A DNA stretch of 64,000 bases from Minisyncoccota bacterium (GTDB lineage: Bacteria > Patescibacteriota > Minisyncoccia > Phycocordibacterales > UBA9973): NCBI GenBank assembly GCA_041662205.1, contig JBAZSZ010000002.1, positions 103,266 to 167,265 of the forward strand, given 5' to 3'. The translations under genes were made by a program, and so were the position numbers. Positions 4,127 through 52,875 of this stretch are shown piece by piece. The notes below the pieces were generated by a model. The model saw only the letters and a list, made by a program, of their open reading frames with translations. It made no database searches and was not told where the DNA came from. Position 1 is the stretch's first letter, and each line of letters opens with the position of its first letter.

Positions 4127-4961
4127 AAGCAAGAGAAATTAGTATTATCCAATCATTGAGCGATAAATCTTCTGCTCTTTTGTTTTCCAGAGATGCCAAA
4201 TCCTTGTTTTGGCAGACATTCTTTAAATTACCAGAGAGTTTTTTTCTTTTATGGGCGAAGCCTGCTTTTACTATTTCCCAAAATTTTTCTTCGTTTATTT
4301 TGTTTTTTATAAAAGTTTTCCTAGAAATATTTTTTATAGAGATAATAGCTGAATCAACTTTTGGTGCGGGAGAAAAATATCTAGCGGGTACCTTCATTAT
4401 TAATTTTGGATCTCCGTAAGCTTTGACTGAAATGGAAAGGATGCTCTCTTTTTGGTCACGAGCGATGATTCTTTTGGCTACTTCATGCTGGACCATCAGA
4501 ACCATAAGTTCTGGTTGATGCAAACCACCTAAAAATTTTTTTAGAATTGCGCCAGTGATATTGTAAGGAATGTTGGCGATTATCTTATAGCGAAGAGATC
4601 TTAAATTTTTAGAATGGTCTGGCCGGGATAGGGACCCGGAGAACCGAGGACTTGATAAAAATTTGAAAATCTCTTCGCTGATATTAAATTCTAAAATATC
4701 CTCATTTATTAAAATTAATTCCCCCCCAGCAATTTCTTTTTCAAACCTTTCTTTTAAAAATTCAAAAAGTTCTCGGTCTTTTTCTACTGCTATTACAGTT
4801 TCAGATTTTTCTAAAAGTTTTTTTGTGAGAGCTCCTTTCCCCGGCCCTATTTCTAAAATTACATCTCCCTTTTTTATTTCACCCGCTTCAATAATTTTTT
4901 TTAAAGCCAGTTCAGACTTTAAAAAATTTTGCCCTAGTGATTTTTTTGCTTTGTGTTGCAT
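4119..4961 (-). CDS. ksgA: 16S rRNA (adenine1518/1519-N6)-dimethyltransferase KsgA/RsmA, carrying an in-frame palindromic element insertion
   Basis: Motifs LGQNFL and EIGPGKGALT (SAM-binding) plus NIPYNIT. The inserted segment SSPRFSGSLSRPDHS is encoded by repeat copy A. Confidence 0.85.
   Translation of the reverse strand: MQHKAKKSLGQNFLKSELALKKIIEAGEIKKGDVILEIGPGKGALTKKLLEKSETVIAVEKDRELFEFLKERFEKEIAGGELILINEDILEFNISEEIFKFLSSPRFSGSLSRPDHSKNLRSLRYKIIANIPYNITGAILKKFLGGLHQPELMVLMVQHEVAKRIIARDQKESILSISVKAYGDPKLIMKVPARYFSPAPKVDSAIISIKNISRKTFIKNKINEEKFWEIVKAGFAHKRKKLSGNLKNVCQNKDLASLENKRAEDLSLNDWIILISLASK
4606..4660 (+). repeat. GC-rich palindromic element, copy A (core ~4614-4652) inside ksgA
   Basis: agaATGGTCTGGCCGGGATAGGGACCCGGAGAACCGAGGACttgataaaa. 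The central CCGGG-ata-ggga-CCCGG hairpin is flanked by the inverted repeats GGTCTGG/CCGAGGACC and by outer ttttnGA/TnAnAAAA arms. Confidence 0.8.
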
Positions 4962-4965
4962 ATAT

Positions 4966-7047
4966 TTATAAGTAAATTGTTTTTATTCCACTAGCCTCCC
5001 CTTCTTTTTCTAATAAATCTGCTGGAATATCAGAAATAAATTCTGATGGAGCATTGATGTTGCGTGATCCAAAAATAGTGCGGAAATTTGCAAAGGATAA
5101 AAATAATTTTCTTCGGGCGCGGGTGAGCGCTACATAGAAAAGCCTTCTTTCTTCTTCACTATCTTCTCCAGACTGTCTCTCTCCTTGTCTTTGGTGCGGG
5201 AAAAGTCCGTCTTCAAGTCCAGTAATAAAAACGTATTCAAATTCAAGGCCTTTTGAGGCATGTACTGTCATTAATTTTATGGCATTTATTGTTTCTTTTT
5301 TCTCCTGATTTATCATTAAAGAATCCTGATCTGAGGCAAGGGAGGCATCTTCTAGAAGTTTTTCTACCCCTGCTCCATTTGTTAAATTGTCATATTTAAG
5401 AGCAAGGGTGGCGAGTTCTTTAATGTTTTCTAGTCTTTCCATATCTTCTTCAGTACCATTTTGTAATTCTTGTTCTATTCCAGATTTTTTGATTACAAAT
5501 TTTATTAATTCACTTGCTTTCAAGTTCGCTATTTTTTCTTTTATTTCTTCTAGTGTTTCGTAAAATTTGCTGATTTTTAACTGCATTTTTATTGGTAAGG
5601 TTTCTTTTTGGTTGGCAAAAATTTTCATCAAAGTTACTTTGCCGATGCCTCGTGCCGGGAAATTTATTATTCTTTTTATGTCAGATAGGCTGTCAGGATT
5701 TAAAGCTGCGCGCAAATATGCGAGAGTGTCTTTAATTTCTTTTCTTTCAAAAAATTTAACCCCTAAAACTTGGTAAGGGATATTATATCGAAGCATCGCT
5801 TCTTCGAGTGCTCGTGATTGGAAATTTGCGCGATATAAAACTGCGACTTCGCTGGCGATGCTTTTGCTCAGGTTCTCGGTCCCCCGGGTCCCTATCCCGG
5901 CCAGACCATTCTCAAAAGCATCACCAGCCCCGTCTATAATTTCTAAAATTTTTGTCGCGACAAATTCGGCTTCATCAGTTTCATCCAGAGCTTCATAGAG
6001 ACTTATCTTTTCACCTTCCACATTTTTTGTAAATAAATTTTTATCTGGCCGGTATTTATTTTTTTTGATTACTTCATTTGCCGCTTCTAAAATATTTTGA
6101 GTAGATCTATAATTTTGTTCTAATAAAATTATTTTGGCATTTGGGTAATCTTTTTCAAAACTTAAAATGTTTTTCAAATTTGCTCCGCGCCAAGAGTAAA
6201 TATTTTGATCGGCATCACCAACTACACAAATATTTTTATTATTTTCAGAAAGTAGCTTAGACATCAAGTATTGCACTTCATTGGTGTCTTGATATTCATC
6301 CACATGGATATATTCCCATTTTTCTTGATAAATTTTTCTGATTTCTGCATTTTCTTTTAATAATTTTGTCGCTTTAAGGAGCAGATCATCAAAGTCTAAA
6401 GAATTCTCTTTCATTTTTTGCTTCTCATATAAATTCCAAACCTGCGCTACTATTTTTCCGAGAGGACTTGAGCCCCCCTCTTCCCTCTCCGCATAATCTG
6501 CTAAATGTACAAACTTTCCTTTTTCTCGCGAGATTATATTTTTTATTTTTTTTGGATCGTATTGTTTTGGATCTATGCCGAGTTCTTTTAAGATATTTTT
6601 AATAAGGGTAGTCGCATCTCCTTCATCTAAAATAGTGAAATATCTTGTAAGTCCTAATAATCTAGCATTTTCTTTTATTATATAAACTCCTAGAGAGTGA
6701 AAAGTGGATACGAAAGGCGCTTCACTGGGAATACTTTTTTGGATGGTCTGGCCGGGATAGGGACCCGGAGAACCGAGGACCTCCGAAAAAGCATTCCCAG
6801 TGAAGCTGTTTTTTATTGCAACATCAATTCTTTCACGCATTTCCTTGGCAGCTTTATTGGTGAATGTCACTGCCAGAATTTTATCAGGAGACACTCCATT
6901 TTTTATTAAATTTACAATTCGGTGCGTAATGGTTTTTGTTTTTCCAGCTCCAGCTCCAGCAATAATCAAAAGTGGTCCCTTCATATGAAGCGCCGCCTCT
7001 TTTTGTTCAGGATTTAGGCCTTTAAGATGTTTTTCGTCTGTATCCAC
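4966..7047 (-). CDS. uvrD: UvrD/PcrA-family ATP-dependent DNA helicase carrying two in-frame palindromic element insertions
   Basis: Walker A GAGAGKTKT, DEYQDTN, and the VLYRANFQSRALEEA helicase motifs. Two extra loop segments, SEVLGSPGPYPGQTIQ and LAGIGTRGTENLS, are encoded by repeat copies C and B. Confidence 0.85.
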   Translation of the reverse strand: MDTDEKHLKGLNPEQKEAALHMKGPLLIIAGAGAGKTKTITHRIVNLIKNGVSPDKILAVTFTNKAAKEMRERIDVAIKNSFTGNAFSEVLGSPGPYPGQTIQKSIPSEAPFVSTFHSLGVYIIKENARLLGLTRYFTILDEGDATTLIKNILKELGIDPKQYDPKKIKNIISREKGKFVHLADYAEREEGGSSPLGKIVAQVWNLYEKQKMKENSLDFDDLLLKATKLLKENAEIRKIYQEKWEYIHVDEYQDTNEVQYLMSKLLSENNKNICVVGDADQNIYSWRGANLKNILSFEKDYPNAKIILLEQNYRSTQNILEAANEVIKKNKYRPDKNLFTKNVEGEKISLYEALDETDEAEFVATKILEIIDGAGDAFENGLAGIGTRGTENLSKSIASEVAVLYRANFQSRALEEAMLRYNIPYQVLGVKFFERKEIKDTLAYLRAALNPDSLSDIKRIINFPARGIGKVTLMKIFANQKETLPIKMQLKISKFYETLEEIKEKIANLKASELIKFVIKKSGIEQELQNGTEEDMERLENIKELATLALKYDNLTNGAGVEKLLEDASLASDQDSLMINQEKKETINAIKLMTVHASKGLEFEYVFITGLEDGLFPHQRQGERQSGEDSEEERRLFYVALTRARRKLFLSFANFRTIFGSRNINAPSEFISDIPADLLEKEGEASGIKTIYL
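5862..5919 (-). repeat. Palindromic element copy B (reverse orientation) inside uvrD
   Basis: ggttctcggtcccccgggtccctatcccggccagaccat, the reverse complement of the family core with variant termini. Confidence 0.8.
6737..6792 (+). repeat. Palindromic element copy C inside uvrD
   Basis: ggATGGTCTGGCCGGGATAGGGACCCGGAGAACCGAGGACCtccgaaaaag. The 39-nt core is identical to copy A. Confidence 0.8.
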
Positions 7048-12490: not shown

Positions 12491-14105
12491 CAAAACAAAA
12501 GTGGAACAGGATGTTAAAAATTTAATATCAAAAACACCCAAAGAAGTTTCACATGTAACTAATACGCTCGAAAAAGATGGTTTTGAGGCATATCTAGTTG
12601 GCGGGTGCGTTAGAGATCTTTTGATGTCTAAGGAGCCAAATGACTGGGATATCACAACTAATGCTAAACCAGAGCAAATTATAAGTCTTTTTGAAAAGAC
12701 TGTTTATGAGAATGGCTTTGGTACAGTAGCTGTGGTTGTTCCGCGTGAAACACATCAAGAGGATGTTTCACATGGAACAAACCCTATTCCCTTGTCAGAA
12801 GAGAAAAATATGATTATAGAAGTTACTCCTTATAGAATTGAAGCAAAATATAGCGATTTTAGACATCCAGATGAGGTGAAATTTAGTGATAAGCTGGAGG
12901 ACGATCTTAAAAGACGTGACTTTACGGTTAATGCCATGGCCTTAAACAGTAAAGGACATCTGGTTGATTTTTTTGATGGTATAAAGGACATTAACGAAAA
13001 GACAATAAAGGCAGTAGGGAATCCAGATGATCGTTTTGCTGAAGATGCTCTCAGGATGTTGCGCGCTGTACGTCTTTCCTGCCAGCTTAATTTTTCTGTG
13101 GCTTATGAAACGATGCAAAGTATTTTGAAAAATTCAGAGTTGATAAAAAAAATTTCTGAAGAAAGAATTCGTGATGAGTTTGTAAAAATAATTATGTCGG
13201 AAAATTCCGCGAATGGAATCGTGATGTTACAAAAATTTAATTTGTTAAAAAATATAATTCCTGAACTAGAAGAGGGAATAGGCTGTGAACAATCCGGTGA
13301 GCATATTTACGACGTTTGGAATCATTTACTTCATGCATTAGAACATGCGACAAACAAGAATTGGTCTTTGGAAATAAGGCTCGCAGCGCTTTTCCATGAT
13401 ATTGGGAAGCCCCGAAGTAGGCGTATTGCGGAGCGAATTGATAATTTATCAGGTCCTCGGTCTTTCGGGTCCCTACCCCGGCCAGACCATGACAAATCAT
13501 CAATTCGCTCCGCAAAGAAAAAATTTACTTTTTACGGTCATGAAGTTGTCAGCACGCGGATGGCAAAAAAAATAATGGAGAGATTAAAATTTCCTAAAAA
13601 AGAAATTGAGTTAGTAGAAAAACTTGTTCGCAATCATATGTTTTTTTCTGACACAGAATTAATCACGCTGTCAGCCGTGCGAAGAATTATTGCAAAAGTT
13701 GGAAAAGAAAATATTTGGTTATTGATGAATGTCCGTGAGTGCGACAGGGTAGGGATGAAGAAAAAAGAAACCCCATATCGCCTTCGGAAGTATTTTGCCA
13801 TGATTGAGGAAGCCCTGAGAGATCCTATTTCTGTCGGACAGTTGAAAATCAACGGTGAATTTATGATAAAAGAGCTTGGAATCACTCCCGGACCACGCAT
13901 GGGGTGGATTTTACATGCATTACTCGAAGAAGTGCTAGATGCTCCGGAGAAAAACACGGTAGAACATCTGTCGGAGTTGGTAAAATCTTTAAATATGTTG
14001 GGGGATACAGAACTAAAAACTCTTGGTCTACGTGGAAAAGAAAAAAAAGAAGAATTAGAAGAAGAAGAGGTTGTGAAGCTTCACAAAAAGCATGGAGTGA
14101 AATAA
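12486..14105 (+). CDS. cca: CCA-adding tRNA nucleotidyltransferase with an HD domain, carrying an in-frame palindromic element insertion
   Basis: GGCVRDLL, RRDFTVNA, and the HD motif LFHDIGKP...FYGHE with about 26 extra residues (..NLSGPRSFGSLPRPDHD..) between GKP and FYGHE, encoded by repeat copy D. The start is a GTG at 12486 (overlaps the tRNA-Arg 3' end by 5 nt) or at 12501; there is no early in-frame ATG. Confidence 0.8.
   Translation: MHKTKVEQDVKNLISKTPKEVSHVTNTLEKDGFEAYLVGGCVRDLLMSKEPNDWDITTNAKPEQIISLFEKTVYENGFGTVAVVVPRETHQEDVSHGTNPIPLSEEKNMIIEVTPYRIEAKYSDFRHPDEVKFSDKLEDDLKRRDFTVNAMALNSKGHLVDFFDGIKDINEKTIKAVGNPDDRFAEDALRMLRAVRLSCQLNFSVAYETMQSILKNSELIKKISEERIRDEFVKIIMSENSANGIVMLQKFNLLKNIIPELEEGIGCEQSGEHIYDVWNHLLHALEHATNKNWSLEIRLAALFHDIGKPRSRRIAERIDNLSGPRSFGSLPRPDHDKSSIRSAKKKFTFYGHEVVSTRMAKKIMERLKFPKKEIELVEKLVRNHMFFSDTELITLSAVRRIIAKVGKENIWLLMNVRECDRVGMKKKETPYRLRKYFAMIEEALRDPISVGQLKINGEFMIKELGITPGPRMGWILHALLEEVLDAPEKNTVEHLSELVKSLNMLGDTELKTLGLRGKEKKEELEEEEVVKLHKKHGVK
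13443..13499 (-). repeat. Palindromic element copy D (reverse orientation) inside cca
   Basis: aggtcctcggtctttcgggtccctaccccggccagaccatgac. The variant central hairpin ttcggg/ccccgg contains one G-U-type mismatch. Confidence 0.75.
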
Positions 14106-18603: not shown

Positions 18604-19530
18604 TTATTTTTGATTGTGAAACTTTTTGTGGATATCTCGTAAGTGTTTATCAGTGACATGGGTATAAATTTGTGTGGTGTTGATGTTGGCATGGCCGAGC
18701 ATCGCTTGTACAGAACGTAAATCTGCTCCGTTGCTAAGTAAGTCGGTCGCAAACATGTGCCTCATCACGTGCGGAGTAACCTTTTTGGAAATTCCCGCTT
18801 TGGTGGCGTGCTGTTTCACGATTCTTTCAATAGATCTTCTGGTTAATGGTTTTACATCTTTTAATTTTTCATTTTTTTTATTGGTTGTTCCAATTTGGAT
18901 AAATAAAGCATCACTCATATCTTTCCTTGCTGATAGATAATTTTTGACTGCTTTTTTTGCATCATCAGAAATAAAAACCACTCTTACTTTTCCACCTTTA
19001 CCACGAATAGAAAGTTCTTCTGAATGCAAATCAATATCAGCAGTTAGGGAACACAGCTCTGAGACGCGGAGTCCAGTGGAAAATAAAAGTTCTAAAATAG
19101 CCTTATCACGCAAATCTTTCAATTCTGTGCCTTTTGGAGAATCTAAAAGTCTCGAGAGTTCTAGGGGAGTAATCAAATCTAAGGATCTTTCATTTACTTT
19201 GGCTAATTCAATTCGTTCAGATGAAAGTGTTTTCACATCTTGTCGTGCTAAATATTTTAAAAATGCTCTCACTGCAATCAAATAATAATTTTGAGTTTTT
19301 TTCGACAAAGTTTCTCCGGTAGCTCTATTGTTGCCAGTTGATTGGCGGTTCAGCCAAAGACGAAATTCTCTTACCATAGCATCATCTATCTTTTCAGGAT
19401 TGTCATTTTTTATATATTCTAAAAAACGACTTAGGTAATGGTCATAATTTTCTACCGTTTTTAAGGATCGCCCTTTTTCTATCTCTATATATTCCAAAAA
19501 TTGAGTTTTGAGCTGTTTTAAGGAGGACAT
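18604..19530 (-). CDS. xerD: Tyrosine site-specific recombinase XerC/XerD
   Basis: C-terminal HVMRHMFATDLLSNGADLRSVQAMLGHANINTTQIYTHV. The likely start is MSSLKQLK (ATG near 19530) with a GGAGG Shine-Dalgarno sequence upstream. Confidence 0.8.
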   Translation of the reverse strand: MSSLKQLKTQFLEYIEIEKGRSLKTVENYDHYLSRFLEYIKNDNPEKIDDAMVREFRLWLNRQSTGNNRATGETLSKKTQNYYLIAVRAFLKYLARQDVKTLSSERIELAKVNERSLDLITPLELSRLLDSPKGTELKDLRDKAILELLFSTGLRVSELCSLTADIDLHSEELSIRGKGGKVRVVFISDDAKKAVKNYLSARKDMSDALFIQIGTTNKKNEKLKDVKPLTRRSIERIVKQHATKAGISKKVTPHVMRHMFATDLLSNGADLRSVQAMLGHANINTTQIYTHVTDKHLRDIHKKFHNQK

Positions 19531-19567
19531 ATTGCAATTATAACAGTTTTGTGTTAATATTGTGAAT

Positions 19568-19831
19568 ATGTTAAACACCAAGAAAAAGCAAGCAGTAATA
19601 AAGAAAAATCAAATACACGAGAAAGACACAGGCTCTTCAGAGGTGCAGGTGGCTGTTTTGTCTACTCAGATTTCCGAATTGGCAAAACATTTAAAGAAAC
19701 ATAAAAAAGATAATCATTCTCGTCGAGGGTTGATCAAGATGGTCGCTGACAGACGTACTCATTTGAAATATTTGGAACGAAAAAGCAAGCCTCGTTACGC
19801 TGCATTGATGAAGAAAATGGATCTCGCGTAA
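19568..19831 (+). CDS. rpsO: 30S ribosomal protein S15
   Basis: [42 protein letters not shown]. The ATG at 19568 is preceded closely by a TAATAT -10-like hexamer. Confidence 0.9.
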
Positions 19832-19838
19832 AGGAAGG

Positions 19839-19970
19839 TTTTTAAAATTCTTTCTTGGCATACTTTTTATAAAGCAATCTATCTGGCGAAGCTTCGCCAG
19901 CGAACTGCTCGGCTCGTCAGCCTGCGCAAGGCTTTCTAAAAAATACGCCTGCAACAAATTTTAAAAATCT
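19839..19970. repeat. Structured GC-rich intergenic element, family T1, copy 1 (downstream of rpsO)
   Basis: tttttataaagcAATCTATCTGGCGAAGCTTCGCCAGCGAACTGCTCGGCTCGTCAGCCTGCGCAAGgctttctaaaaaa, with outer AT-rich inverted arms. It ends at the TATAAT of the NYN gene. Confidence 0.7.
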
Positions 19971-23807: not shown

Positions 23808-24887
23808 TTAATGTTTTATTTTTTTGATTTTTTCCCAAGGAAAATTTTTCTTGCCAAAATGGCCATATATAGCAGTCTGCTCATATATGGGTTTTTGGAG
23901 ACTCAGAGTTTTGATTATAGCGAGTGGTTTAAAGTCAAAATTTTGGCGGACAATTTTTGATAAATCTTCCCCTTTTTCATTTATTGCTTCTATCATCAGA
24001 GGTTCAGCCATACCTATAGCGTAAGCGACAGATACCAATATTTCTTTGCCGTATCCTGATGCTACTAAACTTTTGGCAACAAAACGCGCCATATAAGCAC
24101 CGGAGCGATCCACCTTTGTAGCGTCTTTTCCAGAAAAACATCCGCCTCCGTGGGGAATGAGCGCGCCATAAGTGTCTACTATTATTTTTCTTCCAGTTAA
24201 CCCTGTATCTGCTGCAAAACCACCGGAAGTAAATTTGTCTGTCGGATTTACTAAAATTTTTACTGTTTTTCGCTCTTCGGGAGATAGAAGGGGATTGATT
24301 ATTTTTTTTGTAATTTCTTTTTTTATTTCTTCCAAGGTAACATCTGGTGAATGTTGAGTACTCACTAATACAGTATGCAGTTTTCCATTAGTATAAGTTA
24401 CTTGTGTTTTGCCATCTGGTTGGAGCCATTTTATTTTTTTATTTTTATCAGTACTTTTTCTTGTCTCTTCTAAGCGTCTGGCAAGTTTGTGTGCTAACAC
24501 TACTCCTTTTGGTAAGAATTCCGGTGTTTCATTTGTGGCATATCCATACATAATGCCTTGATCTCCTGCTCCACCAATATCTACTCCTTTCGCTATATCA
24601 GGAGATTGAGTGACTATATGCGCAGAGATATTAAGTTTGTCTGTATAGCCAATTTTTTGATATACATTTTTTGCGATTTTGACATAATCTACCTTTCCTT
24701 TGGAAGTTACTTCTCCGCCGATGACAAGCTTGCCATGGCCACCAAAAATTTCTACGGCTACACGGCTTTTTGGATCTATTTTTAAATACGCATCTAAAAT
24801 AGCGTCTGATATTTGATCACAGATTTTATCTGGATGACCGGAAGTTACACTCTCGACGGTGTAATTGTTGCTGTGTTTGTAAAACAT
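23808..24887 (-). CDS. metK: S-adenosylmethionine synthetase
   Basis: ESVTSGHPDKICDQISDAILD and the GGGAFSGKD-type motif GGGCFSGKDATKVDRSGAY. Confidence 0.9.
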   Translation of the reverse strand: MFYKHSNNYTVESVTSGHPDKICDQISDAILDAYLKIDPKSRVAVEIFGGHGKLVIGGEVTSKGKVDYVKIAKNVYQKIGYTDKLNISAHIVTQSPDIAKGVDIGGAGDQGIMYGYATNETPEFLPKGVVLAHKLARRLEETRKSTDKNKKIKWLQPDGKTQVTYTNGKLHTVLVSTQHSPDVTLEEIKKEITKKIINPLLSPEERKTVKILVNPTDKFTSGGFAADTGLTGRKIIVDTYGALIPHGGGCFSGKDATKVDRSGAYMARFVAKSLVASGYGKEILVSVAYAIGMAEPLMIEAINEKGEDLSKIVRQNFDFKPLAIIKTLSLQKPIYEQTAIYGHFGKKNFPWEKIKKIKH

Positions 24888-24902
24888 GATAGGAGTATAA
24901 CA

Positions 24903-24955
24903 TTTCCCCCACCCCAGGGATAGGGGAAATCCCCTATCCCTGGGGTGGGGGAAAC
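24903..24955. repeat. Perfect 53-bp palindrome (25-bp arms, 3-nt spacer) between divergent metK and the dksA-like gene
   Basis: TTTCCCCCACCCCAGGGATAGGGGA-aat-TCCCCTATCCCTGGGGTGGGGGAAA. GC-rich in an AT-rich genome. Its GGGATAGGG centre resembles the core of the in-frame element family. Confidence 0.85.
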
Positions 24956-24968
24956 TTGCTATGAAAAT

Positions 24969-25346
24969 ATGAAATGTTATGATTGTGGCATGTTAGACAA
25001 GAAAAAAATTAAAGAGAAATTAGAAAAAGAAAGAGATGTTTTGCTTGAGCAGATGAAGGACTGGGGCAAATTAAATGGAGAGACAGGAGAGTGGGAAGCG
25101 ATTCCGGAAGTATTGGAATTTCCGGAAACTGATGAAAATGATAAAGCCGACCGGTTCGAGAATTTTGAAGCTAGAAGTTCTATGATCAGAACCCTAGAGC
25201 CAAGATTAAATATTATTTTAAAATCATTGAAAGGAATAAATAGAGAGTCTTTTGGAAAGTGTGTAGTTTGTGGAAAATTTATTGAAATGGCGCGCTTGGA
25301 AGCAAATCCTGCTGCTCAGACATGTAAGAAACATTTAGAAAGTTAA
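24969..25346 (+). CDS. DksA/TraR-family C4 zinc-finger protein
   Basis: C-terminal CVVCGKFIEMARLEANPAAQTCKKH preceded by a coiled-coil region. The ORF-track start (GTG at 24945) lies inside the palindrome; an ATG at 24969 is more plausible. Confidence 0.65.
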   Translation: MKCYDCGMLDKKKIKEKLEKERDVLLEQMKDWGKLNGETGEWEAIPEVLEFPETDENDKADRFENFEARSSMIRTLEPRLNIILKSLKGINRESFGKCVVCGKFIEMARLEANPAAQTCKKHLES

Positions 25347-25349
25347 TTT

Positions 25350-26966
25350 ATGAGTTTTGCCAAAGTTTATTCAGCGCAAGTTAATTTACTCAAGGGTTCT
25401 ATCGTGACTATTGAAGTAGATCTCTCAAAAGGGCTCCACTCTTTTAGCTTGGTTGGTTTGCCGGACAAAGCGGTGGATGAATCCAAAGATAGAGTAAGCG
25501 GAGCCATAAAAAATTCTGGCTTTAAATCTCCCAAAGCAAAAAATCAAAAGATAATAGTTTCGCTTTCACCGGCTGATTTGAAAAAGGAGGGCCCTTTTTT
25601 TGATTTAGGAATTGCTTTGTCTTATATGCTAGCGGCGGGTGACGTGAAATTTGATTCAGAGAAAAAGATTTTTTTAGGAGAGCTGGGGCTCGATGGAACT
25701 TTGCGGAAAATCCGTGGGGCCTTACCACTTGCGCAAGAAGCTAAAAGACTTGGTTTTGAAGAAATATATTTACCAAAAGAAAATGCAGTCGAGGCGGCGT
25801 TAGTGGAAGGCATAAAAATTTTTGGAGCAAATAGTTTGCAGGAAGTGGTGAGGCATCTAAGCCCCAATGAGGCCAGCAAAATTTTTTCGGGTCCTCGGTC
25901 TGAAGCCAGACCAGCTCAAAAATCTTCTAGCCTCATTGAGGCTGGAGGATTAATTAATATTCAGCCGCAAACAAAAATAAATTATAAAAAAGAAATATCA
26001 CGGATTGATTTTTCAGATATTCGTGGGCAAGAGGGAGCCAAGCGAGGTTTGGAAATTGCGGCAGCTGGCGGACACAATATCGCCATGTATGGCCCACCGG
26101 GCACAGGTAAGACGATGCTTGCTCGGGCATTTTCTCAACTACTACCAGATTTAGATCTTGATGAGGTTTTAGAAATTACAGGCATTCACTCAGTAGCAGG
26201 AAATACAAATGGAGAGTTAGTTTGTTTTCCTCCATTTCGTTCCCCGCATCATACTTCGTCCTATGTTTCTATTATCGGTGGAGGGACATATCCAAAGCCC
26301 GGAGAAGTGACGCTCGCACATCGCGGAGTTTTATTTTTAGATGAATTTCCAGAATTTGAAAAAAGAGTGATCGAATCTCTGCGCCAGCCACTCGAAGACA
26401 ACATTGTTTCAATTTCGCGCGCCAAAGGAAATGCTTGTTTTCCTTCAAATTTTATTTTAGTCGCGGCGATGAATCCTTGTCCTTGTGGGAACGCGACTTC
26501 GAAACAAAAAGCATGCATTTGCAAACCGTCCGACTTAGATAGATATAAAAGAAAATTGTCTGGACCGATTGTGGATCGTATCGATCTCTGGGTTTCTGTC
26601 GGTAACGTTGATTATAAAAAATTAGGAGGCGATGGGGATGGCGAGAAAAGTGAAAAGATAAAAGAAAGAATAATCAAAGCGCGAGAAAACCAAAAAAATA
26701 GATTTAAAAAATTTGAGAAAGATATTAAGAAAAAAATCACAACTAATAGTGAGATGAATGTAAAAGATCTAGGTATGATGGTGCCACTCGGTGGCAAAGT
26801 GAGAGACTTGCTCGATGATAGTGCAGAACGTTTGAGCTTGTCTGCTCGCGCCTATCATCGGATAATTAAAATAGCATGCACGATAGCAGACTTGGAAAAT
26901 TCTCCTGAGGTAGAAGAGCATCATATTTTAGAAGCGATACAATATCGACCGAAAGTTAATAACTAG
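25350..26966 (+). CDS. comM: YifB/ComM-family Mg-chelatase-like AAA+ ATPase, carrying an internally deleted copy of the palindromic element in its linker
   Basis: N-terminal Lon-like domain, Walker A GPPGTGKT, Walker B VLFLDEF, and a C-terminal Mg-chelatase region. The linker SGPRSEARPAQ is encoded by repeat copy E. Confidence 0.8.
   Translation: MSFAKVYSAQVNLLKGSIVTIEVDLSKGLHSFSLVGLPDKAVDESKDRVSGAIKNSGFKSPKAKNQKIIVSLSPADLKKEGPFFDLGIALSYMLAAGDVKFDSEKKIFLGELGLDGTLRKIRGALPLAQEAKRLGFEEIYLPKENAVEAALVEGIKIFGANSLQEVVRHLSPNEASKIFSGPRSEARPAQKSSSLIEAGGLINIQPQTKINYKKEISRIDFSDIRGQEGAKRGLEIAAAGGHNIAMYGPPGTGKTMLARAFSQLLPDLDLDEVLEITGIHSVAGNTNGELVCFPPFRSPHHTSSYVSIIGGGTYPKPGEVTLAHRGVLFLDEFPEFEKRVIESLRQPLEDNIVSISRAKGNACFPSNFILVAAMNPCPCGNATSKQKACICKPSDLDRYKRKLSGPIVDRIDLWVSVGNVDYKKLGGDGDGEKSEKIKERIIKARENQKNRFKKFEKDIKKKITTNSEMNVKDLGMMVPLGGKVRDLLDDSAERLSLSARAYHRIIKIACTIADLENSPEVEEHHILEAIQYRPKVNN
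25884..25913 (-). repeat. Internally deleted palindromic element copy E inside comM
   Basis: ttttcgGGTCCTCGGTCTgaagCCAGACCAgct. Both termini are retained and the central palindrome is replaced by gaag. Confidence 0.6.
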
Positions 26967-27843: not shown

Positions 27844-27855
27844 TTTATAGAAAAT

Positions 27856-27882
27856 AAAAAATCCCCATTAAGGGGATTTTTT
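27856..27882. terminator. Bidirectional intrinsic terminator between lexA and hup
   Basis: AAAAAATCCCC-attaa-GGGGATTTTTT, an 11-bp stem flanked by A and T runs. A second perfect palindrome, attttatCTCGAGataaaat, follows. Confidence 0.7.
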
Positions 27883-27902
27883 ATTTTATCTCGAGATAAA
27901 AT

Positions 27903-33333: not shown

Positions 33334-33445
33334 ACTAAAATAGGAAAATATCAAAATTTATAAAGCAATCTATCTGGTGTTGCTACACCAGCGAACTGCT
33401 CGGCCCGTCGGCCTGCGCAAGGCTTTCTAAATTTTTTATTTTCCT
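33334..33445. repeat. Family T1, copy 2 (downstream of pyrF), flanked by a perfect 18-bp inverted repeat
   Basis: aactaaaataggaaaata...ataaagcAATCTATCTGGTGTTGCTACACCAGCGAACTGCTCGGCCCGTCGGCCTGCGCAAGgctttctaaa...tattttcctattttagtt. Compensatory substitutions relative to copy 1 in both internal hairpins. Confidence 0.75.
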
Positions 33446-38903: not shown

Positions 38904-38944
38904 AAAAAAATAACCCCGTCGCTCGTGAGCGACGGGGTTATTTT
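38904..38944. terminator. Intrinsic terminator (for the minus-strand gene 38957-39184) just upstream of the tig promoter
   Basis: aaaaaaaTAACCCCGTCGCTC-gtga-GCGACGGGGTTAtttt. Confidence 0.7.
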
Positions 38945-52812: not shown

Positions 52813-52875
52813 AAAGTTTTGGAATGGTCTGGCTGGGATAGGGACCCAGAGAACCGAGGACCTGAGAAAACTTTG
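52813..52875 (+). repeat. Palindromic element copy F, intergenic (HIT gene / recJ), with compensatory stem changes
   Basis: aaagttttggaATGGTCTGGCTGGGATAGGGACCCAGAGAACCGAGGACCtgagaaaacttt. The stem CTGGG/CCCAG replaces CCGGG/CCCGG, a double compensatory change. The outer arms aaagtttt/aaaacttt extend the palindrome to about 63 bp. Confidence 0.8.

Follow-up and report, generated by a model that had tools for sequence, protein, structure and literature searches.

What is a perfect, GC-rich palindrome doing in the short space between two divergently transcribed genes of a bacterium from the Patescibacteria, or candidate phyla radiation (CPR)? The palindrome (Pal-A) lies in a stretch of 64,000 nucleotides of contig JBAZSZ010000002.1 (Minisyncoccota bacterium, UBA9973), which at its full length is called the window here. 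It separates metK, encoding S-adenosylmethionine synthetase, from a DksA/TraR-type zinc-finger gene (the dksA-like gene) that is followed by comM. A preliminary description had located the promoters inside or beyond the palindrome, which would place a very stable hairpin in the 5' leader of one or both mRNAs, and had offered an operator or DNA cruciform as the alternative. Comparison with related loci favors another answer: Pal-A is probably a non-autonomous mobile palindromic mini-element, belonging to a small family in Paceibacteria (Patescibacteria/CPR), and not a regulatory leader. The best reading is that of an element resembling either the GC clusters of yeast mitochondria or a REPIN (a doublet of repetitive extragenic palindromic (REP) units forming a hairpin), tolerated at a permissive or targeted hot spot.

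The perfect GC-rich palindrome reported between the divergent metK and dksA-like/comM genes was recovered by an inverted-repeat search together with gene calling. Its arms are 25 nt long, as described before, and 100% complementary, but the total length is 52 bp instead of 53 bp and the centre comprises 2 nt instead of 3 (Table 1). No hairpin-type inverted repeat in the 64-kb window is longer than Pal-A, and no other long one is perfect; the runner-up close inverted repeats have arms of 16–19 nt. By our own estimate, chance at 35% GC would yield such a repeat with an expectation of about 1e-9 (~0.27^25 x 2.5e5). The arms contain 64% GC compared to ~35% for the window, in which the arm motif has no second occurrence. 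The hairpin is predicted to fold with −65.7 and −64.8 kcal/mol as RNA on the two strands (z = −8.6 and −9.5) and with −31.9 kcal/mol as DNA. Furthermore, the left arm alone forms a quasi-palindrome, CCCCCACCCC-A-GGGATAGGGG, and corresponds to one REP-like unit; the inverted-repeat search returned the pair ATTTCCCCCACCCC/GGGATAGGGGAAAT (14 nt, 86%) inside each arm. The layout of Pal-A is X-A-Y-(centre)-Y'-T-X', with GGGATAGGGG as Y and CCCCCACCCC as X, and X and Y' differ at two bases only. The element consists of two inverted REP-like units of ~25 nt, which are based on the 10-mer CCCCTATCCC/GGGATAGGGG and on CCCCCACCCC/GGGGTGGGGG, a variant of it.

The first line of evidence comes from relatives with the same locus. 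Related loci were retrieved through MetK homologues and share the gene order pnp, a hypothetical gene and metK, followed in divergent orientation by the dksA-like gene and comM. In three of these relatives (L023, L027/28 and L029), metK and the dksA-like gene are 50–51 bp apart and the palindrome is missing, compared to a distance of 102 bp in the window (24888–24989). These empty sites read ...GAGTATAGCAC TTGCTATGG..., and the flanks of Pal-A align with them base for base, ...GAGTATA(A/G)CA on one side and CTTGCTATG... on the other. The 52-bp insertion is clean, as the flank lengths are unchanged relative to all three empty sites, and the alignment contains no target-site duplication: ...AACA precedes and CTTG... 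follows a palindrome that reads TTTCC...GGAAA, without any repeat. The insertion point is a gap of 1–2 nt between the extended −10 box of metK and the −35 box of the dksA-like gene.

Inserts occupy exactly the same nucleotide gap in four genomes, namely the window, L030/31, L024 and L034. In L030/31 (Hainich H52), the gap holds a palindrome related to Pal-A, TTTTCCCCGACACCAGGAAAAGGGGATTTCCCCTTCTCCTGGTGTCGGGGAAA, while in L024 it holds a double hairpin of ~70 nt with GTTGGAC motifs (Pal-B) that is unrelated to Pal-A. The insert of L034 is composite and includes a Pal-B unit with an inverted loop. In addition, the MetK proteins P0023 and P0118 have over-called N-termini in which additional inserts from between these two promoter boxes are translated, located between ...YSK and xYTQ(I/L)M. 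A neighbor-joining tree of 2677 aligned nt of metK, dksA and comM (200 bootstraps; L034 not in the tree) pairs the window with L023 (200/200), L029 with L030 (181/200) and L024 with L027 (200/200). Each of the three insert carriers in the tree (the window, L030 and L024) is thus paired with an empty-site sister, which calls for a minimum of three independent gains or for losses that were just as precise. L023 is the sequence nearest to the window over almost the whole region, and a recombination test for a palindrome-bearing tract acquired from an L030-like lineage revealed no continuous tract; the stretch 24543–24767 is marginally nearer to L030, within noise.

The second line of evidence is the presence of the same element at unrelated loci. 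One genome per GTDB species was scanned with a 20-mer of the arm, and metagenome collections were scanned with a 20-mer and an 18-mer. These scans located the element only in a Patescibacteria metagenome-assembled genome (MAG), H43-bin140_1 (L003), and in the Hainich contigs L016 and L021, with a solo arm in L002, a Paceibacterota MAG. In L003, the palindrome lies 2 nt after the stop codon of lepA, has GAATTC at its centre and matches 49 of the 52 nt of the window palindrome at 98% identity. The same lepA locus occurs in two independent Hainich metagenome assemblies, giving three independent assemblies in all. Since related copies are present in independent assemblies from other samples, an assembly artefact was rejected as the origin of Pal-A. 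In L002, the solo arm encodes the end of folD, its last codons together with the TAG stop, with the solo unit at 4788–4815, and a full variant, GCCCCTATCCCAGGGATAAGGGA-GT-TCCCCTATCCCTGGGATAGGGGC, in which X equals Y', lies between folD and a gene identified by inspection as rodA/ftsW-like. From its sequence, the family looks like two inverted copies of a quasi-palindromic unit of ~21–25 nt that is also found alone. The other arm matches in metagenomes were rejected as conserved coding sequence or GC-rich coincidences. Viral contig scans for Pal-A, its 21-nt unit, Pal-B and the core of an in-frame element family described below returned nothing relevant, a match in L035 being a chance hit at 63% GC. 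As a separate observation, the AT-rich (35–37% GC) metagenome contigs L011 (2426–2450) and L018 (618–642) carry the hairpin GCCACCCC-AGGGATA-GGGGTGGC, whose AGGGATA loop is as in the half unit of the palindrome.

Alignment of the four full copies provides a third line of evidence. Complementarity is retained in 96% of pair cells, and 6 of the 25 arm pairs are changed on both sides; none of 500 shuffles matched these values, and slid controls gave at most 1 pair. Paired changes beyond those of the shuffles indicate that a pairing-linked process keeps the arms complementary, which could be selection for a mobilizable hairpin or correction of one arm against the other. The palindrome centre is AA in the window and TT in L030, and the loop of Pal-B reads GTTGGAC in L024 and GTCCAAC in L034; the elements therefore sit in either orientation.

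These observations bear on whether the palindromes could be local mutational products, generated de novo in each lineage by fold-back or template-switch repair. Quasi-palindrome correction is a known mutational mechanism that would also explain perfect arms, and both the different palindromes at an identical gap in different lineages and the missing target-site duplication fit such an origin. However, the inserted sequence is not derived from neighboring DNA, and Pal-B has a second copy elsewhere in L024. Moreover, another MAG has 49 of the 52 nt, at 98% identity, in an unrelated place, and a de novo origin cannot yield the same 49 nt twice; local generation is very unlikely.

The position of the insert relative to the two promoters decides whether it could act in a transcript. 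Start-codon contexts across the window contain almost no Shine–Dalgarno sequences. Instead, the motif TGnTAnnnT precedes candidate ATGs at a sharply defined spacing of exactly 6 nt (nine cases) or 7 nt (four cases): 13 of its 27 occurrences within 45 nt upstream of starts are at 6–7 nt, and other distances are almost never used. This fixed spacing implies leaderless mRNAs transcribed from extended −10 promoters, which, on these sequence patterns, appears to be the main design of the genome; starts with the pattern include 3128, 7047, 19530, 19985, 40805, 44825, 57300, 57315 and 59456. At the locus, the metK box TGnTATACTC is kept in six genomes and CTTGCTAT at the −35 position of the dksA-like gene is kept in L024, L027, L029, L030 and L034; TGnTATACTC and CTTGCTAT...TGnTAT(C/G/T)AT are conserved in all relatives examined. 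Because both core promoters fit within the flanks, Pal-A is predicted to lie upstream of both start sites and not in a 5' leader, contrary to the placement of the promoters inside or beyond it. An outer imperfect inverted repeat (24877–24906/24971–25000), considered as part of the element, was rejected as it corresponds to the two divergent TGTTAT... extended −10 boxes.

The earlier distance of 14–16 bp to each start codon holds for metK, with its ATG 15 nt away, but not for the dksA-like gene. The orthologues of the latter in four related loci are 118 aa long, which sets its start at ATG 24990, 35 nt from the palindrome; the shorter distance presupposed a start at ATG 24969 or GTG 24945. GTG 24945, the start chosen by the ORF finder, lies inside the palindrome (133-aa open reading frame (ORF), 24945–25346) and is, judged by the orthologues, an ORF-calling artefact.

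It is therefore scarcely conceivable that Pal-A acts as an RNA hairpin in the leader of the metK and/or dksA-like mRNA, controlling translation or stability. In its favor are the extreme stability of such a hairpin (−65 kcal/mol) and the GTG start inside the palindrome that the ORF finder allows. Against this stand the extended −10 boxes 6 nt before both ATGs, which follow the genome-wide leaderless pattern and are conserved in relatives, the 118-aa orthologues with a start at 24990, and a sister genome without any leader. Neither a riboswitch nor any other Rfam family supports it. In agreement with the preliminary description, a permissive Rfam scan at the site and a gathering-score scan of the window gave no S-adenosylmethionine-riboswitch-like leader; at the site there was only sub-threshold microRNA-hairpin noise, the whole window yielded four tRNAs, and no family matches the palindrome. 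Likewise, a terminator scan found no terminator-like site at the palindrome, which reads TTT-stem-AAA on both strands, the wrong polarity of T-run and A-run for an intrinsic terminator; the real terminators of the window, at 27851–27887 and 38907–38944, have an A-run, stem and T-run.

An operator or cruciform switch, through which a dimeric regulator or supercoil-driven extrusion would co-regulate metK and dksA-like/comM, is distinctly unlikely as well. Pal-A is a perfect palindrome exactly between two divergent core promoters (DNA hairpin of −31.9 kcal/mol), negative supercoiling from divergent transcription favors cruciform extrusion, and the repeated filling of the same gap by hairpin-forming DNA could be adaptive. 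However, an operator would be conserved at the orthologous promoter, while the palindrome is absent in the sister and in two other relatives (L023, L027/28 and L029) that have the same genes and promoter boxes, and L024 and L034 carry unrelated hairpins. As the gap occupants Pal-A and Pal-B are unrelated in sequence, there is no common operator. In addition, the arms co-vary and the half-site sequence is not conserved, 25-bp arms far exceed the length of known operators, and the same palindrome is found elsewhere after a stop codon and between co-directional genes. The operator alternative of the preliminary description thus becomes unlikely because the sister lacks the palindrome at a conserved locus and the same sequence occurs at non-promoter loci.

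If Pal-A is a mobile mini-element, it has to be compared with the known classes of such elements. REP and REPIN elements of Proteobacteria are associated with REP-associated tyrosine transposases (RAYTs) and are moved by these Y1 transposases without target duplication. Each arm of Pal-A corresponds to a REP unit in being an imperfect palindrome of 20–40 bp, and the architecture of a REPIN, two inverted units forming one long hairpin, is found in the window and again in L003, L030 and L002. The likeness to REP elements, REPINs and bacterial interspersed mosaic elements (BIMEs) further includes the occurrence of the ~25-nt imperfect-palindrome unit either solo (L002) or as an inverted doublet (the window and L003), an intergenic position, often right after stop codons, the missing target-site duplication and the variability among close relatives. 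On the other hand, the copy number is apparently very low compared to tens to hundreds, the doublet is essentially spacerless with perfect arms, the host is an AT-rich CPR genome and no RAYT/Y1 transposase was found among the 40 window ORFs scanned with Pfam. A further difference concerns the terminal tag: REP elements are defined by a conserved GTAG or CGTC tetranucleotide at one end (PMC3733652), and direct reading of the palindrome found neither tetranucleotide in it or at its ends.

In the very AT-rich, compact mitochondrial genomes of yeast, GC clusters, to which the byp elements are related, are mobile inserts that are short, palindromic and rich in GC. They are mostly intergenic but are also found in frame in coding genes (var1), comprise several families that evolve fast as they merge and are shuffled, and differ from strain to strain (PMC8811140). 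Pal-A is likewise a short GC-rich palindromic insert in an AT-rich genome (64% vs ~35% GC), present or absent among sisters, and the window genome also has both intergenic and in-frame families of GC-rich hairpins. However, GC clusters usually end in AG/TAG repeats that are interpreted as target duplications (PMC8811140), and no such repeats are present at the palindrome flanks. The host domain, and presumably the machinery, differ too. Rickettsia palindromic elements are palindromic repeats that occur in an AT-rich bacterial genome of reduced size and can be inserted in frame in genes for proteins; they reportedly measure 100–150 bp and are not perfect palindromes. Similar in-frame insertion is seen here for a companion GGGATAGGG family (in ksgA, uvrD and the gene for the CCA-adding enzyme), whereas the 52-bp palindrome is intergenic and its length is not a multiple of three. 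Miniature inverted-repeat transposable elements (MITEs), such as Correia/NEMIS of Neisseria, are also short, non-autonomous, bounded by inverted repeats and located near or inside promoters, whose geometry they can change. MITEs have a target-site duplication and a non-palindromic interior derived from an insertion sequence, whereas Pal-A is made up of two arms and 2 nt; a classical MITE was rejected because Pal-A has no target-site duplication. On their defining tests, Pal-A falls outside both REP elements and MITEs, yet it behaves like REP elements, MITEs and mitochondrial GC clusters. None of the papers returned by a literature search connects Patescibacteria/CPR with REP, MITE or palindromic elements.

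The absence of duplications would also be expected of a site-specific recombination site or its footprint, for example an attachment or resolution site or the substrate of an Xer-like or integron-like tyrosine recombinase. Integron integrases use folded palindromes as substrates, the insertions are precise, and a tyrosine recombinase gene lies 5 kb away. However, the insert has no cargo DNA, this recombinase resembles an ordinary chromosomal Xer protein, and direct reading of Pal-A found no attC core sites (RYYYAAC/GTTRRRY), its perfect pairing leaving no bulges or extrahelical bases. A recombination site is therefore highly improbable.

As for how a mobile mini-element would move, Pal-A may transpose as a single strand in folded form, or it may be cut and pasted, or copied, in a step that depends on the hairpin, with an enzyme that would act in trans, be encoded outside this window and possibly recognize GGGATAGGG. 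The complementarity of the arms would be maintained if only a perfect hairpin is mobile, or if template switching within the hairpin corrects one arm. At the metK locus, the element is probably not transcribed, and may be largely neutral because both promoters retain their own boxes. Its main physical effect would be to double the spacing of the start sites from ~52 to ~104 bp, which may relieve competition between two RNA polymerases and would provide a cruciform-prone spacer. Reuse of the gap might arise in two ways. The gap may be the sole position in a 50-bp overlapping promoter pair that accepts 50–110 bp without loss of a box, selection filtering out all other insertions. Alternatively, the empty site may be a preferred target, being a small palindrome, ATAGCA-CT-TGCTAT, in a region that divergent transcription would keep underwound.

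Several points weigh against the mobile-element reading. Movement of the element is inferred and none was observed directly, and the Pfam scan of 40 window ORFs gave no transposase that could serve as the mobilizing enzyme, only ordinary housekeeping genes and one Xer-like tyrosine recombinase (18604..19581). The copy number looks low, as the 64-kb window has a single copy, 8 kb of L002 contain two and 10 kb of L016 contain one. Independent gain is not formally separable from precise loss in the three sister lineages or from allelic recombination, and the reused gap could reflect purifying selection, as insertions at other positions break a promoter, instead of targeting. Finally, both start sites are predictions from sequence alone.

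As far as can be judged from sequence, Pal-A belongs to a wider set of GC-rich hairpin mini-elements that these genomes contain. A second family shares the core GGTCTGGCCGGGATAGGGACCCGGAGAACCGAGGACC, of which five copies are found in the window (one in ksgA, two in uvrD, one in the gene for the CCA-adding enzyme and one separating the divergent genes HIT and recJ) and one in L003. Comparison with an empty uvrD site (L032) gives a net insert of 63 nt with ambiguous boundaries; one arm may be an inverted copy of the target. The preliminary description had suggested a recognition motif common to Pal-A and this family, for which there is now moderate support. The sharing of GGGATAGGG is unlikely to be due to chance, as a 9-mer in common between the palindrome and the in-frame core was found in 0.8% of 5000 composition-matched shuffles (P = 0.008), and the two families co-occur in the window and in L003. 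Furthermore, the L002 variant of the palindrome contains CTGGGATAGGG, an 11-mer that it shares with the in-frame copy at 52822. From these sequences, a common recognition motif is plausible, though unproven. A wider proposal would be that the perfect palindromes, Pal-B and the in-frame elements make up a guild of hairpin mini-elements in Paceibacteria that has not been described before, that one hairpin-specific enzyme recognizing GGGATAGGG-type motifs moves them all, that it targets the centre of promoter or palindromic DNA, and that colonization of the metK/dksA-like gap is adaptive. This is rather unlikely; if true, a GC-rich spacer of 50–110 bp would uncouple promoters that otherwise overlap and are mutually exclusive.

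Several further observations were made on hairpin families in these genomes. The in-frame family copies are each flanked by copy-specific inverted repeats of 16–30 nt. In-frame insertions affect ksgA, uvrD (two, in opposite orientations), the CCA-adding enzyme gene and a glycerate-kinase-like gene, the HIT/recJ copy being located between divergent promoters, and the copy at 52822 shows a compensated stem change from CCGGG/CCCGG to CTGGG/CCCAG. UvrD/PcrA orthologues at 75–84% identity range from 629 to 758 aa because inserts are present or absent, or stacked, at two hot spots, one after ...GNA and one after LEIxDG. These inserts come from at least two families, AFSEVLGSPGPYPGQTIQKS and LERTLGRSDGDGQRKFSAENFRGESE, and in L032 the junction sequence of both empty UvrD sites is GGCTCCGCC. 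MetK of P0045, P0103, P0118, P0080, P0090, P0019 and P0041 contains small inserts, in frame or at the C-terminus, in which G, P, R and S are abundant; these include LGHSPTGEP, ACPVRDREGSQRVPISNG and, at the C-terminus, ...REGSQRPSVSNG..., and suggest further mini-element families. The Pal-B family (CCTCCAGACGTTGGACGTCTGGAGG and relatives) is found in L024 (3020–3100 and 300–350) and L034 (1505–1570). Lastly, a GC-rich intergenic motif occurs in two copies in the window (CTGGCGAAGCTTCGCCAGCGAACTGCTCGGCTCGTCAGCCTGCGCAAGGCTTTCT at 19883–19933 and CTGGTGTTGCTACACCAGCGAACTGCTCGGCCCGTCGGCCTGCGCAAGGCTTTCT at 33376–33428), upstream of a NYN-domain gene and of argG; pairing in its first hairpin is kept through several changes, and neither copy has an Rfam match.

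Table 1. Coordinates of the palindrome, the predicted promoter boxes, the flanking genes and related features (window positions unless a locus is named)
Feature	Position	Strand	Remarks
Pal-A palindrome	24903..24954	none	52 bp; clean insertion relative to empty-site relatives (alignment)
Left arm	24903..24927	+	TTTCCCCCACCCCAGGGATAGGGGA
Centre	24928-24929		AA, between the two arms
Right arm	24930..24954	+	TCCCCTATCCCTGGGGTGGGGGAAA; exact reverse complement of the left arm
metK predicted extended -10	24894..24902	-	TGTTATACT; then 6 nt and ATG; directly abuts the palindrome
dksA-like predicted -35	24956..24961	+	TTGCTA; 1 nt past the palindrome end
dksA-like predicted extended -10	24975..24983	+	TGTTATGAT; 16 nt after the -35; then 6 nt and ATG 24990
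metK (S-adenosylmethionine synthetase)	23808..24887	-	359 aa; Pfam PF00438, PF02772, PF02773
dksA-like gene (zf-dskA_traR)	24990..25346	+	118 aa; DksA/TraR-type zinc finger; PF01258, E = 5.8e-7; start by orthology
comM/yifB (Mg-chelatase-like AAA+)	25350..26966	+	downstream of the dksA-like gene, same operon
In-frame family copies	4612-4655, 5864-5914, 6740-6787, 13448-13493, 52822-52866; L003 2426-2483		
UvrD orthologue loci	L033 3001-5259; L032 1501-3453		
MetK over-calls in relatives	L024 3001-4188; L034 1501-2652		inserts translated as N-terminus

The MetK protein of the window is 100% identical to P0001, a protein of a 'Candidatus Paceibacterota' MAG. Over-extension of N-termini by gene callers through inserts was noted both for the dksA-like gene (133 aa, 24945–25346) and for MetK, with 383–415 aa in relatives, and is a systematic annotation artefact in these genomes.

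CPR bacteria have very small genomes, in which repeats are thought to be almost absent. The locus indicates that they still hold several small families of GC-rich hairpin elements, which turn over between sister genomes, reuse insertion points and sit in promoters or in frame within essential genes. One consequence concerns annotation, as start codons are mis-called through inserts, and another concerns comparative genomics, in which the lengths of CPR proteins are compared. The findings also bear on promoter architecture in Patescibacteria/CPR, a phylum in which transcription is, to our knowledge, almost unstudied. With its gap empty, filled by Pal-A or filled by Pal-B, this leaderless divergent promoter pair forms a natural series that could show the effects of spacing and cruciforms on overlapping promoters and help to find the mobilizing enzyme. 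Taken alone, the palindrome is probably a passenger that the locus tolerates; of broader interest are the hot spot and the wider guild of such elements in a phylum supposed to be poor in repeats.

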